From: an uncultured virus (IMG/VR IMGVR_UViG_3300013306_000447)
Taxonomy: Duplodnaviria; Heunggongvirae; Uroviricota; Caudoviricetes
Strand: one strand, 5' to 3'
Length of the DNA stretch: 20,000 nucleotides
IMG/VR virus record: IMGVR_UViG_3300013306_000447
Position 1 is the first letter of the stretch. Every line of letters starts with the position of its first letter. Below, one piece after another: positions 5,965 through 16,633 of the stretch. Position numbers and translations under genes: made by a program. The notes below the pieces were generated by a model that had not been told where the DNA came from, searched no databases, and worked only from the letters and a program-made list of their open reading frames with translations.

Positions 5965-6324
5965 TCAAGCTACGCGCTCCAGCAGCATGCCTGCGATCTC
6001 CAGATGTGCCGAATGCAAGCGCGCATAGAACTGCGTTCGACCACACCCGCAGTGCGCCCATTTCTGGCGTTCTACGCTTTCACGGTTCAGGTAATGCTCT
6101 TGCACCACTTGGGCCAGATGCCAGGACAGACGCTTGTTTACGATCACCTCAATGTCTGCACTCCATGGCAGCAGCATCTTCGAACCGCCGCGTGTGCCTC
6201 GAATCAATTCCCCCCGGCAATCGATCAATTGACCCAACATACTGCTGGCAGACCCGTCAGGGCCACCGCCACCGTGCATGTCGAGCGCCCACAATTTCAA
6301 CATCTCATCCATTTCCGGGATCAA
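5965..6324 (-). CDS. PA0613-like late regulator / Q-like antiterminator
   Basis: TTG start overlaps the primase stop (TTGA) with GGAG RBS; 119 aa (IPEMDEMLKLWA...EHYLN...HCGCGRTQFYARLH) with C-terminal HTH; occupies the Q position before the late promoter. Confidence 0.75.
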   Translation of the reverse strand: MIPEMDEMLKLWALDMHGGGGPDGSASSMLGQLIDCRGELIRGTRGGSKMLLPWSADIEVIVNKRLSWHLAQVVQEHYLNRESVERQKWAHCGCGRTQFYARLHSAHLEIAGMLLERVA

Positions 6325-8543
6325 AATGCGGTCTCCTGCCTGGGCACCGCCGACCCTCGCTTCCACTCCGGCGGTTTCACATACTCATAGCTGCGCACAC
6401 CACGCACACAGTTACCCTTGCGCCGGCGGGGCCAATTCATCCGATGCATAATCTTGCCGATGCGCATTTGCTCGGGTCTACCCCAGTGGCTTGGATCGAT
6501 GTTAAGCGCATGCTCAAGCAAGTGCGCGCCCGTCACCGTATCGCCAATATGCTTGTCGGCCAGATAGCCGACCACCAGGTCTTCCCACATATCTGCCTGA
6601 TAACGCTGATCCTGCTCAGCTGCGAAAACATCAGCCTCATCGCGCTCCACCCACCAGATGTCACCTGCGCGAAAACAGGCTAACGCTTCGGCCCAGAGTT
6701 GATCACGGTCGGCTCGCAGTCCCTCTAGATCAACTTTGGTACACATTACCGGCCAGTAACGGCGGTTGCCCGTATCGTCCTTCAGGTACTCATCCTGGTT
6801 GGTCGTGCCGATAAAAACGCTCTGCCGGGGAACATCCAGCATCCGCCGGCCATAGCTCTCGCGGTAGGTATCGATGGGCGATGAGACGAATTGCTTGGCC
6901 TTGGTCGACTCTGCCTTGTTCAGTGAGTCCAGCTCGGCCATCTCCACAATCCACTTGCCCCGGATCGCCTGATAGGCGTCTTTGCTGCTCAGATCAAATG
7001 ACGTATCCATGAACCACTCGCCGCCCAATACCCGCGCAGCCGTGGATTTCCCCTCGCCCTGCAAGCCTTCCAAAATCAACATTGAGTCAGCCTTGCAGCC
7101 AGGTCGACACACGCGTGCCACCGCAGAAATCAGCCATCGCTTGCCCACCTTGCGGGTGTACGAACTATCCATAACACCCAACCGATCCTGCAACCAACGC
7201 TCAAGGCGTCGCACGCCATCCCACTCAAGGCTATCTAGATACTCTCGCACCGGGTGGTAGGAGTTGTCATTCGCCACCGCACTGACAGCCTCAACAACGT
7301 GGGCAGTTTTCACCCGTAGCCCGTAAACATCAGCAAGCCACAGCGCCACCCTGATGTCGTCAAGATCGGTCCAGTCCCCCTTACCACCGCCATACGGAGG
7401 TGTACGCAGCTTGCGCGTCTTCGAACTGAACGAATCCCAGGCGATTACGCCGGCCCAGCGTTTATCGTTACCCAGAATCAATGCCACGTTGAATGGGTGT
7501 ACGATCAATCCTCCTTTTTCAGAATACTGCAGCTTCTCACGCCACCCCTCATCGGTAGAGGGTCGAACCACCGCCAACACCTGGCGGCGCACCGTGTCCA
7601 TGCCCTCAGCACAGTGCAAGTCGTTAAAATCCGTCCAGCAGTCTTCCCGGTCGTTGTCGAATACCGGCATAACCACCTGCCCACCGACCACAACCGACGC
7701 ATTGCCAGCCTTGATTACCCCCGCGTTATACGGGTGCCCATTCACTACAGTCTTCCAATCATCATCTGCGCAAAACACCAACTGCCGGCCGGGATACTTT
7801 GTGCGCATGGCTTGTGCCACCGGCAGCAAGTTGCCGGCATCAAAGCAAATGCACACCGTCAGTGAGGTCGCCATGTGCAGGCTGGCGCCTGTCGCGTATC
7901 CCTCTGCGATCAAAATCACGTCGCCCGGCTCTGGCTCGGGGCCGATCAGATGAAACGCGCCTTCTTTAGCCAAACCGTACGGCCAGTAGGTTTTGTTCCT
8001 GCCCGTAGCAGCCTGCTTTTCCGGGTACAGCACTTGTAGCCCGACAATATCGCCCTTCACATTGCGCATCGGCACGAAAGCCGTACCGCTCTTTGCCTTG
8101 TAACGCAGACCGATGCCGACTACCCGCTTGGCATCCAAGTAACGCGAACCGCCCTTTTCAGATAGGTGCTTCCACATACCAGCAGCGCGCCGGGCTGCAG
8201 TGCGGTGCTTTCGGTCCTCAGCCAGGGCGGCCTTGCGCTGGCCTTCCTCAGCCCTGGCGCGCATCACCGCTCGATCTTCAGCGCTCAGCCGCCCGCCCTT
8301 TGGCTTGATCTTCTGCCAACTGCCCTTTTCACCCTGACGCCAGTCGCCAAAAGCGCCGCAATACAGTGTTTTGCCGTCACCAGTCAGATGCTCATAGATC
8401 ACATACCAACCCGTTTTCTCCGGGGCCTTATCACCGTCGCACTCGCAACGCGTTCGCTTACCAATCACCAATGGGGTTTCTGGTTTAAGCCCGTAGTCCT
8501 GCAACTGGGCCAACACATCATCGAGTAGTTCGTGATTGGTCAT
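6321..8543 (-). CDS. Primase-helicase: Toprim domain plus VapE-family (SF3-like) helicase
   Basis: Toprim motifs IAEGYATG, CADDD, TDFND; Walker A GLQGEGKST, VEMAEL, FIGTTN, DDTGNRRYWPV. Confidence 0.92.
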   Translation of the reverse strand: MTNHELLDDVLAQLQDYGLKPETPLVIGKRTRCECDGDKAPEKTGWYVIYEHLTGDGKTLYCGAFGDWRQGEKGSWQKIKPKGGRLSAEDRAVMRARAEEGQRKAALAEDRKHRTAARRAAGMWKHLSEKGGSRYLDAKRVVGIGLRYKAKSGTAFVPMRNVKGDIVGLQVLYPEKQAATGRNKTYWPYGLAKEGAFHLIGPEPEPGDVILIAEGYATGASLHMATSLTVCICFDAGNLLPVAQAMRTKYPGRQLVFCADDDWKTVVNGHPYNAGVIKAGNASVVVGGQVVMPVFDNDREDCWTDFNDLHCAEGMDTVRRQVLAVVRPSTDEGWREKLQYSEKGGLIVHPFNVALILGNDKRWAGVIAWDSFSSKTRKLRTPPYGGGKGDWTDLDDIRVALWLADVYGLRVKTAHVVEAVSAVANDNSYHPVREYLDSLEWDGVRRLERWLQDRLGVMDSSYTRKVGKRWLISAVARVCRPGCKADSMLILEGLQGEGKSTAARVLGGEWFMDTSFDLSSKDAYQAIRGKWIVEMAELDSLNKAESTKAKQFVSSPIDTYRESYGRRMLDVPRQSVFIGTTNQDEYLKDDTGNRRYWPVMCTKVDLEGLRADRDQLWAEALACFRAGDIWWVERDEADVFAAEQDQRYQADMWEDLVVGYLADKHIGDTVTGAHLLEHALNIDPSHWGRPEQMRIGKIMHRMNWPRRRKGNCVRGVRSYEYVKPPEWKRGSAVPRQETAF

Positions 8544-8758
8544 GCCCGTACCCCACGCCGGTCTGCCAGCTCCTGGCAGTCAGTGCAACGCGTACAGCCG
8601 CGATCAAGCATTGCCAATCGCCGAGCCTCTAGGATGAAATCCCCGCAGTCCACGCACTCGAGCGTACATTGGCCTGGATTGGCACTAGGACGCGCGGCCA
8701 TCGCCACTGCAAGATTAAGAGCAATGACGTTATCAGCAACATCTGCGTTGTCAGACAT
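8540..8758 (-). CDS. TraR/DksA C4-type zinc-finger protein (PtrB/PA0612-like)
   Basis: N-terminal DxADxA motif; CVDC...RR...CTRCTDCQ. Confidence 0.88.
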   Translation of the reverse strand: MSDNADVADNVIALNLAVAMAARPSANPGQCTLECVDCGDFILEARRLAMLDRGCTRCTDCQELADRRGVRA

Positions 8759-9260
8759 AGGTCAGATCCTCCGCATGCATCTTGCGGAGCACTGCGCGCA
8801 ACTTGAACACCGCCTGCACCATCCGCTCGGCCAGCAGTTCAAACTCAGCCAGTTCGTCATCGTCCAATTTGTCATCGGACAATGAGGTCGATACATGCGT
8901 GGCTAACTCCCCCTCACGAGAAAGCAACTCGCCAATGCCTGCCATTAGCGACTGCGCCGTGTCGGTGTCGCTCAACTCGGAAACGTCGATTCCCACCCAA
9001 CCGATGGGATGCAGCAACGCGTCTACGATGCGCGGATCGCGCGTGGCACCCAGCACCAATTCAAGATCGCCAATGTTAGGCGTGTGGCTGGTGTTGGTCA
9101 GGCTCAGCTTATGATTGAGGGTGGTGGCGTTGCCGCCGTCGATAGCGGCAATGGCAGTGGCTCCGCCTGGATAATCACGTGCGGCGTGGAGCAAAGCTTG
9201 CGGTAGAGTCAACAGCGAACGCCGTGCGCGCTCAATGGAATTGAACTGTTTACGGTTCAT
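8751..9260 (-). CDS. cII: Phage regulatory CII family protein
   Basis: YPGGATAIA...TLNHKL...H pattern; downstream of cro. Confidence 0.8.
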   Translation of the reverse strand: MNRKQFNSIERARRSLLTLPQALLHAARDYPGGATAIAAIDGGNATTLNHKLSLTNTSHTPNIGDLELVLGATRDPRIVDALLHPIGWVGIDVSELSDTDTAQSLMAGIGELLSREGELATHVSTSLSDDKLDDDELAEFELLAERMVQAVFKLRAVLRKMHAEDLTYV

Positions 9261-9284
9261 GGCAAAACTCCAAAAACTCTGCCA

Positions 9285-9313
9285 GTGACCGCCGCATGCC
9301 TGTTTGGTACAGT
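9285..9313 (+). promoter_or_regulatory. Putative antisense (PRE-like) promoter
   Basis: GTGACC (9285-9290), 17-nt spacer, TACAGT (9308-9313) with extended TG; points back through cro towards cI. Confidence 0.5.
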
Positions 9314-9319
9314 TGCGCC

Positions 9320-9527
9320 GTGGTCACTCACAGGTGGTCGCATGCAGCCGGTTGCTCTGTGGTAGAAAACCCGGCTGCACCCCAATGGCAAGGCACACGC
9401 TCCGCATGTGCCCTGTCGTTACAGCCTGCAGACCGTGGTGGGTTAGCAGGCAACCCAGGGCATCCGTGCCTTGGGGGGTGGTGGAACGGCGCGTTGTATT
9501 GGTTTGCTCCGCGCCGCTCTGCCTTTT
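9320..9527 (+). ncRNA. Candidate structured antisense/small RNA with GUGGU loops
   Basis: Five consecutive hairpins; three contain G-U pairs that form only on the plus strand; five GTGGT motifs; promoter upstream and a hairpin plus TTTT at the end. Confidence 0.5.
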
Positions 9528-9533
9528 ACTTCG

Positions 9534-9722
9534 TTAAGCAGCCTGCTGGCTTGACGCTTTATCTGTCGCCCTGAGCTTTCCATCTGTAAGCACTTGAACC
9601 TGATACTGGCGTGACTGCGGCGGCTCACAGCCCCATTGCGATACTGCAGCGGGGGAGACTTTCAGAGCCGCAGCCACTTTAGATTTCCCTCCGAAGAAGG
9701 CGATTACTTCTGTCGTGAGCAT
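9534..9722 (-). CDS. cro: Cro-like repressor
   Basis: 62 aa MLTTEVIAFFGGKSKVAAALKVSPAAVSQW HTH; AGGAG RBS; divergent from cI. Confidence 0.9.
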   Translation of the reverse strand: MLTTEVIAFFGGKSKVAAALKVSPAAVSQWGCEPPQSRQYQVQVLTDGKLRATDKASSQQAA

Positions 9723-9748
9723 GGTGCTCTCCTGTTTTCCTGCCCAAT

Positions 9749-9821
9749 ACAGTAAGTACACTTAACTTATTTGGCAAGCAAATGAAGGACTCCAAACAAA
9801 GTAAGCCTTAAGCTAGCTTAA
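9749..9821. promoter_or_regulatory. OR region: PR promoter and two operators
   Basis: Minus strand TTGCCA (9777-9772), 17-nt spacer, TACTGT (9754-9749); palindromes TAAG-TACA-CTTA (9753-9764) and TAAG-CTAG-CTTA (9809-9820). Confidence 0.75.
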
Positions 9822-10477
9822 TGAATACTCCAGCAGAAAGAATCGCATACGCCATTTCCAAGTGCGGAAAGAAAGCCAGCGTCTTGGCGATAGAGTCCAA
9901 CCTGAGTGCTGCCAGAATTAGCCAGTTAGCGCAGGGAGACGGGAGCCTCAAGGCTGAAAATCTTTTCCTATTCGCACGCGCTACCGGGTTCTCAGCCCAG
10001 TGGCTTGCCGAAGGCATAGGGGACAAATATGACGCCGGTGCCCTCGAGGAGGGCCATGTGCTGATTCCCCAATTCACCGCCAAGGCGGGTGCAGGCCCGG
10101 GCCACACCAACCACCACATAGAAGACCTCGGCGGCCTAATGTTTAGGAGAGACTGGCTTACCCGAATGGGCTTGAAGGAAAAGAACCTCAAGGTCATCTA
10201 CAGCACAGGAATGAGCATGTTCCCGACCATTGCTGATGATGATGTGCTGCTGATTGACGAAGGCCAGCGCGAGCCGTTGAACGGCAGAATCTATGCAATT
10301 CAGCGCCCAGACGGAGACATCAGCATCAAGCGCCTAGTCCACACGCTCACCAACGGTTGGATAATTCGAAGCGACAACGAGGACAAACGCGCTTATCCGG
10401 ATGAGAGCGCTACTGATACAAGCATTGGTCATCTACTCATCATCGGACGGGCCGTATGGCATGCTGGAGCCCTCTAG
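9821..10477 (+). CDS. cI: CI-like repressor, HTH plus S24 autopeptidase (LexA/PrtR family)
   Basis: N-terminal HTH, AG cleavage site (AGAGPG), catalytic Ser (GMSMFPT) and Lys (IKRL), C-terminal IIGRAVW. Confidence 0.95.
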   Translation: MNTPAERIAYAISKCGKKASVLAIESNLSAARISQLAQGDGSLKAENLFLFARATGFSAQWLAEGIGDKYDAGALEEGHVLIPQFTAKAGAGPGHTNHHIEDLGGLMFRRDWLTRMGLKEKNLKVIYSTGMSMFPTIADDDVLLIDEGQREPLNGRIYAIQRPDGDISIKRLVHTLTNGWIIRSDNEDKRAYPDESATDTSIGHLLIIGRAVWHAGAL

Positions 10478-10502
10478 CTGTAGATCTCTTAACAAAATAT
10501 AT

Positions 10503-10540
10503 TAAGCTTTCTTGACTTAAAAAGTTAAGAGAACTTTAAT
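10503..10540 (+). promoter_or_regulatory. OL region: PL promoter with two operators
   Basis: TTGACT (10512-10517), 17-nt spacer, TTTAAT (10535-10540), overlapped by TAAG-N4-CTTG (10503-10514) and TAAG-N4-CTTT (10526-10537). Confidence 0.8.
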
Positions 10541-10576
10541 TGCCTCACTCTCCCACCACAGAGCGAGGCAATTCCC

Positions 10577-10747
10577 ATGCAAACCGCAACGTTGCACGTC
10601 CTACCAACGTGCCCAGAAAGCCGCGTTTTCGAGGTGCGCCGCCTAGCCATAATCCACGGCTGCGCCTTCGCCCCTACCAAACGCAAATCAACTACCAGCC
10701 CAACGCCAACCCCCTTCAATCCTGACGATGGAGGGCGTGCAGCATGA
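10577..10747 (+). CDS. Small early protein, first gene of the PL operon (56 aa)
   Basis: Below the ORF-track size cut-off: MQTATLHVLPTCPESRVFEVRRLAIIHGCAF...DDGGRAA; GAGG RBS; stop overlaps the next ATG (ATGA). Confidence 0.7.
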   Translation: MQTATLHVLPTCPESRVFEVRRLAIIHGCAFAPTKRKSTTSPTPTPFNPDDGGRAA

Positions 10748-11307
10748 GTAGACTATCTCTCAACGCCAGCGCCTACATCCGTCTACAGGCCCAGGTAAAC
10801 CTTAGCGGCACCTTCAATCACACCCTGCATTCGTGTGATGGCTGCCAATCCGTAGCGGCTCAGGTTGAGATCGAACAATGCACCGCCGGCATCACGGTGA
10901 TGGTGCGCATCTGCGGGACGCGCAATACATCAGTCACTCTCGATAAGCACCGCAAAAACAACGCCACGCGCGTTGCGAGCTTTATCGAAGGTATCGCCAA
11001 TGGCCGCAGCCCCACCGGTGTGCCCGACGTAGATGAGCATGAAGCTGTCAGCGATATAGAGGCCACTCTACGTCTGGCTATCCGGCGTGGGCGCGGCATC
11101 TACCACCTGATCGCCGACGAACTGGAGCCTTCTCTAAAGATACAGCGCAACCCACGCGGCGGTTTTATCGCCGTGATCGAAATAGACGACGACGCAGGCT
11201 GCCTACTCACCCTGCCCGCCGACAACCAGCGCGCTTACGCAATCTTGGTTGAAAACCTTAATCAATTCCTGCAGGGCTACCGCAACAGCCTCGCGGCCGC
11301 CGCGTGA
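10744..11307 (+). CDS. Hypothetical phage early protein
   Basis: 187 aa, GGAGG RBS, coupled start. Confidence 0.75.
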   Translation: MSRLSLNASAYIRLQAQVNLSGTFNHTLHSCDGCQSVAAQVEIEQCTAGITVMVRICGTRNTSVTLDKHRKNNATRVASFIEGIANGRSPTGVPDVDEHEAVSDIEATLRLAIRRGRGIYHLIADELEPSLKIQRNPRGGFIAVIEIDDDAGCLLTLPADNQRAYAILVENLNQFLQGYRNSLAAAA

Positions 11308-11316
11308 GGTGCCTAC

Positions 11317-11607
11317 ATGAGCATATCCCTCAAACGCGCAGCCCAACGCCTTGGTCTGGGTCACCGCGAATTGATGAAACGCATGCGCGACAAAGGTTTG
11401 CTAGATAAAAAAAACCTGCCAGCTAACCCAGCCGCAACCAAAGACTTTTTGGTCACCCGCGAGAGCCGCTGGTTTCACGAGGAATACGGGATGCAATACC
11501 AACGTACCACTCGTGTGACTGAGATCGGCATCTCCTGGCTAGCCAACCAGATCGGTATTGAATGCCCAGCACCACCCGCCGTGCCTGACCCGCGAGAAGT
11601 CGCGTAA
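11317..11607 (+). CDS. Antirepressor KilAC(ANT)-like DNA-binding protein
   Basis: SLKRAAQRLGLG...LMKRMRDKGLL...NLP...TTRVTEIGISWLA pattern; GAGG RBS. Confidence 0.75.
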   Translation: MSISLKRAAQRLGLGHRELMKRMRDKGLLDKKNLPANPAATKDFLVTRESRWFHEEYGMQYQRTTRVTEIGISWLANQIGIECPAPPAVPDPREVA

Positions 11608-11789
11608 TGAGACAGCCCGAAGCATGGCCGCGCCAGTACGCCCGCCAGATCACGGCGATGCGAACTCGCGAGGAACGCATCGCCGCGCTGGCAGAGGTAC
11701 CGGAGCACCTACGCGATCTTGTGCGCACCCACGTTGAGATCGCCTGGAACCACCCCCGAGGGAATACACATGGATCGCAAACTGATTGA
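11607..11789 (+). CDS. Hypothetical phage protein
   Basis: 60 aa; TAATG coupling with the previous gene. Confidence 0.7.
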   Translation: MRQPEAWPRQYARQITAMRTREERIAALAEVPEHLRDLVRTHVEIAWNHPRGNTHGSQTD

Positions 11790-12237
11790 CACCTTACTGA
11801 TCGAGCTGCTGAACCTGCCCGAAGAACGCCGTACCCCTGAGAAAATTCTGGCCAACCTGACATTAGCCGCGACCGCCGCCGGTGTTTCCCTCCCCATCAC
11901 TGGCGCACCGCTGCAAATCGAGCACCTGCAACTGGCGGCGGCTCTCGACCAACTCGTGATCGATCTCGGCCCCAACTACCGTGCTCGCGCCATGCTGCGC
12001 CTTGGCAGCGGCATTGAGGGCGTTGAGTTGGGGGCCGTTCTCGAACCGCTAGACAGCACCTCACCACTGCCGCGCTTCGTGGCCTTTGGCAATACAGCAC
12101 GCACAGCATTGGCAGCTATCAACCGCGATATTCGAGCCAGTAACCAACCACATGCCAAAGCAGCGCCGCAACGTAGGCCCGGAAAGCTGACGCTCGGCAC
12201 GCTCAAGGCCCAAGTAGATAAGGCGAACGCAGCATGA
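11770..12237 (+). CDS. Hypothetical phage protein
   Basis: Start reassigned to ATG 11770 (GAGGG RBS); ends with an ATGA overlap. Confidence 0.7.
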   Translation: MDRKLIDTLLIELLNLPEERRTPEKILANLTLAATAAGVSLPITGAPLQIEHLQLAAALDQLVIDLGPNYRARAMLRLGSGIEGVELGAVLEPLDSTSPLPRFVAFGNTARTALAAINRDIRASNQPHAKAAPQRRPGKLTLGTLKAQVDKANAA

Positions 12238-12554
12238 CGGCCTCTGTACAGCGCGAACTGCGCCTGCCGATAGCGCCCAGAAGTCAAACCGTTGACCTGC
12301 TGTACCGAACCCTCGGGGACCTGCTCGTACCCGTCGAACAGGTACGTGAACGCTACTTCAGCAATCTCAACCAGGACAACTTCACTCGCGCACTGACAAG
12401 CGGCCGTGTAGCGCTACCCATCACCACTCTGGATACCAGCGCCAAGCGCCCCCGTTTTATCGACATCCGCCATCTGGCCATCTTCATTGATACCCAGGCT
12501 GATGCCGCAGACGAAGAACTGACAAACACTCAACCCCAGCCAGACGAGCGATGA
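12234..12554 (+). CDS. prtN: Pyocin activator PrtN family protein
   Basis: TVDLLYRTLGDLLVPVEQVRERYF...LPITTLDTSAKRPRFIDIRHLAIFID is the PrtN signature. Confidence 0.85.
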   Translation: MTASVQRELRLPIAPRSQTVDLLYRTLGDLLVPVEQVRERYFSNLNQDNFTRALTSGRVALPITTLDTSAKRPRFIDIRHLAIFIDTQADAADEELTNTQPQPDER

Positions 12555-12643
12555 ATCTTTAACCGACACACTTCGATAACAGCTGCACCACCGCAACCGC
12601 TGCACCACCAGCCAAGCGGAACACAACAGTAGGAGCAAACCAC

Positions 12644-13042
12644 ATGACGGCATTTGAAATTCTCGCATTAATCAGCTTCGTAATTGCACTCGCCATTCTG
12701 TACTGGGTCGGGTACCGAGGCGGCTTAAGGGGCGGCTGGAGCGAAGGCTACGACGACGGCCACGCTAAGGGCTACATCCTGGGCATTGAGGAGGGCGAGT
12801 CATCGGGCGCTACTGCTCTCGAAAACGCCACACGGCGATGTGAACGCCTGGAACTGATTTTGATCAGGGAACCCCAGGACCGTCAGATCCTTCTGGCCAT
12901 CGCGGGAAAACTCAAACTCGCCGCCGATTTCTTCCACGCCATCAAATCGGAAAGCCACGCAACTCAAGCACTCATTTTACGTGACCACGCGTTGAACATG
13001 GCCGACGAGTTGAATTCCTTCTATCAGGAGGATGCAGCATGA
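12644..13042 (+). CDS. Hypothetical membrane-anchored protein with GxxxG repeats
   Basis: N-terminal TM helix, then GYRGG-LRGG-WSEG-YDDG-HAKG-YILG repeats; AGGAG RBS. Confidence 0.75.
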   Translation: MTAFEILALISFVIALAILYWVGYRGGLRGGWSEGYDDGHAKGYILGIEEGESSGATALENATRRCERLELILIREPQDRQILLAIAGKLKLAADFFHAIKSESHATQALILRDHALNMADELNSFYQEDAA

Positions 13043-16430: not shown

Positions 16431-16633
16431 GCGCAGCCCGTGTACTTGAGTTTGAAGACTTACAACGCGTAACCGGATACAGCCGCCGGGCAGACGTTGA
16501 AAAAGCGTTGCGCTCCCAAGGAATCCGAATTTTCAGTGGAAGAAAGGGACCCTGGACTACGGTGGATTTGATCAACCAGGCGGGCGGGCTAAAACCCGTG
16601 GATACCGAAAGCTACAGTACGGACATCGTATGA
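16427..16633 (+). CDS. DUF4224-like protein, probable excisionase/RDF
   Basis: Start at ATG 16427 (GGAGG RBS); LQRVTGYSRR...LRSQGIRIF pattern; coupled to the integrase. Confidence 0.75.
   Translation: MSAARVLEFEDLQRVTGYSRRADVEKALRSQGIRIFSGRKGPWTTVDLINQAGGLKPVDTESYSTDIV

Follow-up and report, generated by a model that had tools for sequence, protein, structure and literature searches.

A candidate antisense RNA in the cro-cII spacer of lambda-like Pseudomonas prophages with conserved complementarity to two start sites of the PL operon

To our knowledge, a handful of enterobacterial phages are known to control their early genes by antisense RNA. In the c4 antisense RNA of P1 and P7, the CI RNA of P4 and the CA RNA of N15, exposed loops are complementary to the ribosome-binding regions of early genes. 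The c4 RNA is made from the same strand and the same transcript as its targets and is processed out of it. The antisense RNA OOP of phage lambda overlaps cII at its 3' end. The present work describes a candidate antisense RNA, called asR in the following, in the spacer between cro and cII of an uncultured virus (IMG/VR record IMGVR_UViG_3300013306_000447). The window, i.e., the whole stretch of 20,000 nucleotides (nt) that was analyzed, is by its sequence the control region of a lambda-like Pseudomonas prophage. A small RNA is probably transcribed backwards from the cro-cII gap, and the explanation that we favor, and regard as moderately probable, is that of a multi-seed antisense small RNA (sRNA) acting on two start sites of the PL operon and on the cII leader. 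This suggests an undescribed RNA layer in the switch between lysis and dormancy. The evidence consists of sequence signals, strand-specific conservation and the co-variation of short words, and from it we infer the strand of expression, pairing in vivo, repression and titration.

Among the described systems, the c4/CI/CA group is closest in working principle, with several seeds in one RNA and an immunity-type layer beside a protein repressor. Complementarity to the ribosome-binding regions of early genes was also found here (12 bp with 10555-10566 and 11 bp with 12632-12642). However, while c4 is encoded upstream of its targets in one transcript, asR lies on the opposite strand with targets in the other early operon, has its own predicted promoter, is convergent with cro and is antisense to the cII leader. 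The Rfam model C4 (RF01695) had no matches at its gathering score in the window or in four related loci (L060, L026, L006 and L033) and none up to E = 10 in the region 9100-10700, and an Rfam scan of the window yielded nothing relevant. Short antisense RNAs that have their own promoter and overlap a lysis-lysogeny transcript are represented by lambda OOP (cII) and P22 sar (ant), as covered in a review (PMC12197685). The predicted asR resembles them at the level of sequence signals, i.e., by a promoter and a terminator of its own and by being antisense to a regulatory mRNA, in this case the 5' leader of cII. OOP and sar act on the gene they overlap, whereas asR has in addition conserved, co-varying matches at two distant starts.

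The spacer has a length of 273 nt (9533..9261, minus strand) and separates cro (9722..9534, minus strand, P22_Cro family) from cII (9260..8751, minus strand, CP76 family). The predicted asR has about 208 nt (9320..9527, plus strand) and contains five GUGGU motifs; its start is placed near 9320 because of the position of its predicted promoter (9285..9313, plus strand). The promoter is composed of a -35-like GTGACC (9285-9290), a TG (9305-9306) and the -10 element TACAGT (9308-9313), with TGGTACAGT as the extended -10 region in the window (9305-9313), and its position is in the loop region of the final hairpin that the sense strand forms ahead of cII. For comparison, 114 related loci were collected via the CII protein (34 from viral contigs and 80 from species-representative genomes; CII identity 38-100%). 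Their hosts are Pseudomonas species and, in a few records, Halomonas, Aidingimonas, Salinicola and Billgrantia; two near copies of the window (G001 and G002, 96-99% identical) added no diversity, and the chromosome from which locus L037 was taken also carries a nearly identical copy of the prophage. The motif TGnTAnnnT is present on the plus strand of 101 of the 106 distinct gaps, in 92 gaps at the same offset from cII, and on the other strand in none of the 106, compared to 383 of 2120 shuffled sequences (18%). The TG, the TA and the final T (T6) are invariant and the n positions are variable, which, as a sequence pattern, is the variation of a promoter.

The predicted terminator (9480..9527, plus strand) is a long G+C-rich hairpin (9480-9523) followed by TTTT (9524-9527), ends 7 nt before the stop codon of cro, and has outer pairs that exist on the plus strand only. 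The asR region has a fold z of -4.6, and in L060 and L006 the sole terminator-like site between cro and cII is located on the asR strand. In the relatives, the cro-proximal 78 nt (65 distinct sequences) yielded a consensus fold of -31.16 kcal/mol with 24 pairs and 8 compensatory changes on the asR strand, versus -12.05 kcal/mol, 14 pairs and 3 compensatory changes on the other strand. The consensus fold of this 3' domain is a GUGGU-loop hairpin followed by the terminator. A soil metatranscriptome contained a 123-nt contig (9334-9456) with an unstranded depth of 633; the contig through cro and cI reached 22.6, and toward cII the depth was 0-3.9. Because the cII flank is conserved among the relatives, the drop in depth on that side gives the impression that an RNA ends close to the predicted start, and we regard the contig as a hint only. 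In three further RNA runs (X12, X13, X14) the whole stretch is part of 24-35 kb contigs with flat depth, which are uninformative on expression, and the uncovered parts of run X1 were not taken as evidence. The original prediction had proposed a candidate RNA in this gap. A discrete plus-strand unit is now backed by promoter, terminator, covariation and the unstranded contig, although the strand of expression is deduced. A different layout was observed in L026, L028, L029, L035, L044, L046 and L047, in which the promoter-hairpin module lies beside cro and further CCACCAC/GGA hairpins without a promoter motif lie toward cII. In this subgroup, the predicted gene for the antisense RNA is therefore separate from part of the cII leader.

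The first proposed target is the leader of the PL operon. It follows a PL-like promoter (TTGACT, 17 nt spacer, TTTAAT; 10512-10540, plus strand), which was recognized by direct reading and in the relatives and has a presumed start site. All four sequence strings of the original prediction are present where it had placed them, and a literal check showed that, as claimed, ACCACAGAGC at 10555-10564 is exactly complementary to 9354-9363. The match lengthens to 12 bp with one G-U pair (10555-10566 with 9352-9363, plus strand, designated seed 1a), and the shared word is kept in the relatives. A second segment, seed 1b (GTGGTGGG, 9435..9442, plus strand), complements CCCACCAC at 10552-10559 as well as the CACCAC loop at 12603-12608. 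In the PL leader, CCCACCAC is central to an inverted repeat (10538-10576, plus strand; fold z = -6.1), the 3' arm of which holds the Shine-Dalgarno (SD) sequence GAGG (10565-10568) of the first open reading frame (ORF). The same arrangement, a central (Y)YACCACAGAG, the SD in the 3' arm and a small ORF of 53-59 amino acids (aa) next to it, was found by a strict pattern in 99 of the 114 loci. The 15 misses include three loci with less than 800 nt of upstream DNA, 11 in which a homologue of the small ORF is preceded by a variant leader, and a single one without the leader.

The first PL gene (10577..10747, plus strand; phrog_35204), proposed target 1, encodes a protein of 56 aa that did not match any Pfam family. 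Its homologues in the 99 loci (53-59 aa) have a conserved N-terminus, two alternative middle parts and the C-terminus GG-x-AA; the final AA suggests a protease tag, which is an idea only. The 5' arm of the inverted repeat (here taken as 10535-10576) begins within or beside the -10 hexamer of PL. Therefore, RNA initiated at PL probably lacks the 5' arm, and the full hairpin that buries the SD would be possible only in read-through transcripts from cI. In the relatives, the outer stem covaries with the SD, e.g., GAAG (L074) and GAGU (L086) are compensated, and several loci are uncompensated. Such a read-through hairpin resembles the 'fold-back inhibition' of IS10.

The second proposed target lies in the 89 nt gap that follows the PrtN/Xis-like gene and precedes ORF 12644 and further genes (plus strand). 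As had been reported, GCTGCACCACC occurs at 12582 and 12599, and ACCAC (12639-12643) stands immediately before ATG 12644, both in a literal check. This second leader (12582..12643, plus strand) is composed of GCTGCACCACC at 12582-12592, the hairpin GCTG-CACCAC-CAGC at 12599-12612, and GGAGCAAACCA at 12632-12642, which overlaps the ACCAC. The last element is complementary to seed 2 of asR (TGGTTTGCTCC, 9500..9510, plus strand), which is part of the loop region at the apex of the terminator hairpin. The match extends from the SD to 2 nt before ATG 12644 and is stronger than that of the original prediction. For the seed-2 hairpin, a strand test in the relatives weakly favored the antisense strand (-11.5 versus -3.2 kcal/mol, from a poor alignment). 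A hairpin GYUG-(CC)ACCAC-CAGY with an SD, mostly with ACCAC abutting the AUG, is present in 62 of the 114 loci (57 distinct contexts), a count in which many flanks are too short to reach the site; on the opposite strand there are 0 occurrences. The downstream gene (12644..13042, plus strand; phrog_28176), proposed target 2, encodes a 132-aa protein with a hydrophobic N-terminus.

The words that are shared by the gap and the start region of the gene after PrtN/Xis differ between groups of relatives. In the window the word is GGAGCAAACCA, located about 250 nt before cII, in a second group it is GCAAACCACATG, and in a third group it is GCACACCACATG (24 distinct pairs). In L022, all 15 nt from the SD to the AUG are common to the gap and the second start region, and in the relatives the words shared by this gap position and the cognate start region have 11-15 nt. 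Cognate pairings of the gap with the second leader reached a value of 10.90, versus 8.83 for shuffled pairings, and those with the PL leader 11.87 versus 10.66; in both cases 0 of 2000 permutations reached the cognate value, and a control with the other strand of the gap gave 5.9. When gap word, gene-1 start and second start region were typed as A or C, the distinct loci comprised 18 AAA, 15 CCC, 11 AC/C/C and no discordant case. The original prediction had one RNA silence several cistrons of the operon. Conserved and co-varying complementarity exists at two start regions of the PL operon, but no conserved sites were found at the starts of the ant-like (11317), PrtN/Xis-like (12234) and int (16630) genes, so that silencing of antirepressor, PrtN, Xis and Int could occur only via polarity. 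On the sense strand of L006 and L060, about 250 nt before cII, the shared word has an AUG after a purine-rich stretch, which opens a frame of 19-24 codons (seen by eye); the window has no AUG at this position.

The opposite strand of the spacer is itself structured. A core with four hairpins (9330..9480, minus strand) forms the 5' leader of cII and presents two (C)CACCAC loops, one ACGGAU hexaloop and one GCGGAGC loop. For this core of about 150 nt, the consensus fold of 33 distinct sequences has 40 pairs, 17 of them with compensatory changes, and -61.96 kcal/mol on the cro/cII-sense strand, versus 26 pairs, 5 of them compensatory, and -18.64 kcal/mol on the plus strand. Our tally of the pair table, with about 133 G-U versus 12 A-C cells, also favors the cro/cII-sense strand; an earlier helix count that mixed the strands and used each strand's own predicted pairs was biased and has been superseded by the consensus folds. 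Because of this fold and its covariation, the CCACCAC-loop hairpins are taken to be selected as part of the cII leader. The loop-loop pairing that had been proposed is not supported in its original form, as both hairpins with complementary loops are sense-selected and thus at least also structures of the cII leader. As the 3' domain is antisense-selected and the core is sense-selected, the spacer is a mosaic in which each strand is under structural selection in a different part, and from its sequence both strands seem to be functional.

The ACGGAU hexaloop (9462-9467) sits on a G+C-rich, covarying stem (9455-9474), and in the 33 sequences its G-G-A is invariant and the remaining positions are nearly so. 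The hairpin has the ANGGAN loop on a short stem that characterizes Csr/Rsm target hairpins. RsmE recognizes the same hexaloop in hcnA (PMC4005645). This likeness concerns the opposite strand, i.e., the cII leader, and not the ACCAC sites, and Gac/Rsm control of cII may be considered on the basis of the motif. The SD of cII was seen in the loop of a conserved UGGCA/UGCCA hairpin (9261-9290).

In the remainder of the window, the primase/helicase gene (8543..6321, minus strand) follows cII and is succeeded by small ORFs and then by terminase and portal genes. A cI-type S24 repressor is encoded at 9821-10477 (plus strand), the small genes of the PL operon (plus strand) include ORF 10577 (56 aa), an ANT/KilAC-like ORF (11317) and the PrtN/excisionase-like ORF (12234), and the integrase gene starts at 16630 (plus strand). 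Palindromes of the CTTAA/TTAAG type were seen by eye around both early promoters (10486-10531 and 9730-9815) and are probably repressor operators. Relatives of other immunity types have different palindromes at the same place, and in the relatives the -10 element of PL is overlapped by immunity-specific palindromes. Strong terminator-like hairpins were observed on the minus strand, i.e., the PR strand, at 5523-5496, 5130-5108 and 3865-3845, between the replication genes and the terminase and portal genes. In the window, neither a Q-like gene nor a tRNA or tmRNA was found, and a blastn search in distant mode against a phage collection gave short matches only, in cI and in an unrelated stretch, which left the gap uncovered.

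Could the ACCAC words be a matter of chance? The short, C/A-rich word might simply be common on the plus strand through codon usage, and indeed the plus strand of the 20 kb contains 41 ACCAC versus 14 GTGGT, 5 of the latter within 9320-9478, and ACCAC occurs in 9.7% of 35-nt windows of coding sequence (CDS). One of the proposed sites is exactly such a case: ACCACCCCCGAGGG at 11749-11762 matches 9469-9482 in 13 of 14 positions, as had been stated, but its ACCAC represents the codons AAC-CAC (Asn-His) of AWNHP, a peptide that is conserved and lies at the end of ORF 11607-11789. Among 61 distinct contexts 39 have AACCAC, and 22 use the synonymous AACCAT, AATCAC or AATCAT. As these 22 lack ACCAC, the site is a by-product of coding and not a conserved RNA site. 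The enrichment test that had been suggested, performed with 80 dereplicated PL segments and a crude gene caller, showed that 29 of 108 independent starts (27%) have ACCAC in the 35 nt before them, versus 24 of 283 coupled starts (8.5%) and 352 of 3644 CDS windows, but the excess stems essentially from one orthologous site, the gene after PrtN/Xis. The caveat that the short seeds might match by chance, justified for the AWNHP site, is refuted by conservation for the PL leader and for both elements of the second leader. In 99 and 62 of the 114 loci, respectively, these occupy fixed places outside coding sequence, they have 0 occurrences on the other strand, and their words co-vary with the gap, which makes chance a highly improbable explanation for them.

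Several observations weigh against an sRNA that acts in trans on the PL operon, and two other explanations were considered. According to one of them, asR acts solely in cis on the cII leader in an OOP-like manner, and the words on the PL side are duplicated leader modules that are kept by gene conversion or a shared translational property. The perfect complementarity of asR is indeed to the cII leader, and it is the cro/cII-sense strand on which the central hairpins with the complements of seeds 1a and 1b (9354-9363 and the 9435 region) are selected; asR versions of the core stems would hold A-C mismatches in some relatives. An extended, wobble-tolerant pairing was not found: beyond a core of 11-13 nt, the differences between the PL leader and the best gap loop are mostly wobble-intolerant (181 versus 64, counted over sequences that are related to one another), and the wobble-direction test was negative. 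The specificity within the window is modest. By a contiguous-helix score, the 12 bp helix at the 10577 start and the 11 bp helix at the 12644 start lie in the 1.3% and 2.1% tails of the background, i.e., they reach only 1-2%, and two starts of the PR operon, 5086 (15 bp) and 8543 (12 bp), G-U pairs included, score as high. Whole-length duplex energies of asR with 60-nt start regions gave no signal, with the targets at mid-rank, by a method that allows unlimited interior loops and was judged unsuited, so that the contiguous-helix score was used instead. The A/C co-variation may reflect a single evolutionary event between two clades, identical sense-strand words would co-vary by gene conversion or a shared binding factor as well, and in the L026-like subgroup the second start region and the gap have only 7 nt in common. 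The RNA runs are unstranded Logan contigs, and for the conserved core they sum the depth over related prophages. Nevertheless, in the relatives the seeds lie in the loop of antisense-selected hairpins and in the window near the apex of the terminator hairpin, the matched words span the SD and the AUG of two independent starts and co-vary, and the motif on the PL side is strand-specific, 228 to 8. We therefore consider action in cis only to be unlikely.

The other explanation starts from the same strand bias. CCACCAC occurs in sense versus antisense orientation 214 to 0 times in the gaps and 228 to 8 times on the PL side, and whatever is complementary to a plus-strand RNA is identical to the cro/cII-sense transcript; therefore, a logic of the nutL/nutR or putL/putR type fits, too. 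The CCACCAC hairpins of the PL leader, of the gap between cro and cII and of the gap after Xis would then be same-sense cis elements, bound by RNA polymerase or by a protein of phage or host origin, for antitermination or translational control. The nut-like alternative had already been named in the original prediction, and it is in accordance with the same-sense motif in both early operons, at positions like those of nutL and nutR, with the sense selection and covarying stems of the gap hairpins, and with strong minus-strand terminators that separate early from late genes in the PR operon. In HK022, according to PMC9378689, the put RNA of about 70 nt forms two stem-loops just downstream of PL (putL), and a similar copy (putR) lies about 270 nt past the PR start. 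The likeness to put, which is unannotated in the HK022 record, is one of position only, and the PL element here, with SD and ATG directly behind it, consists of one short hairpin of about 30 nt instead of a 70-nt two-stem RNA. With lambda N/nut, the locus has the same-sense element and the terminators in common, the first PL protein lacks a Pfam family and does not look arginine-rich, one of its two variants having few arginines (both by eye), and an N-like arginine-rich protein was not recognized in the window. Moreover, each site on the PL side has its own longer, co-varying gap word of 11-15 nt, SD and AUG included and in one case spanning everything from SD to AUG. In linear form, ACCAC stands beside the SD and directly adjoins the AUG, and the antisense promoter and terminator would be left unexplained. 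Same-sense elements of the nut/put type were our first reading, which was demoted by the results on the promoter, the terminator, the second leader and the dedicated words, and we now regard it as quite improbable. The multi-seed antisense RNA is favored because each target has its own longer word across SD and AUG, which a single protein-binding motif does not predict.

According to this multi-seed antisense RNA explanation, the cro-cII DNA would be used on both strands, and the plus strand would encode asR (about 9320-9527) with its own extended -10 promoter and intrinsic terminator. G/U-rich segments of asR (GUGGUGG-type and UGGUUUGCUCC) would pair with the 5' leader and the SD of the first PL gene (10552-10566), and asR would also pair with the second leader, at the CACCAC hairpin loop and at 12632-12642, a stretch that begins at the SD and stops 2 nt short of the AUG. 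In cis, it would pair perfectly with the CCACCAC-loop hairpins of the cII leader. In a lysogen, asR would be made and would block the entry of ribosomes on leaky early transcripts at their independent starts. Upon firing of PR, convergent transcription and the perfectly complementary PR transcript would reduce free asR and thereby free the translation of the PL operon. A more far-reaching version is that the spacer of about 270 bp is a two-strand RNA switch, in which a cII leader with Rsm/Csr-type and CCACCAC hairpins is set against an sRNA that restrains two PL starts. Firing of PR would interfere with the transcription of asR and sponge it, PL translation would be licensed by PR and tuned by the Gac/Rsm system of the host, and the family would be widespread in prophages of Pseudomonas and Halomonadaceae and absent from Rfam. 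Taken as a whole, we consider this version conceivable but doubtful.

The signals point to an undescribed RNA family, represented by the 114 loci, that belongs to lambda-like prophages of Pseudomonas from soil and plants and has variants in bacteria of the Halomonas type. A description of the element in print was not found by a full-text search, the coverage of which excludes subscription journals, or in passages of the 2025 review of phage sRNAs (PMC12197685), and there is no Rfam family. The geometry is unusual, because the cro-cII spacer harbors the predicted RNA gene, the seeds of the RNA are reserved for start sites in the other early operon, and a conserved, structured leader occupies the opposite strand. 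The pairs of seeds and targets are directly testable. If confirmed, asR would represent an added RNA layer in the lysis-lysogeny switch of a large group of prophages.

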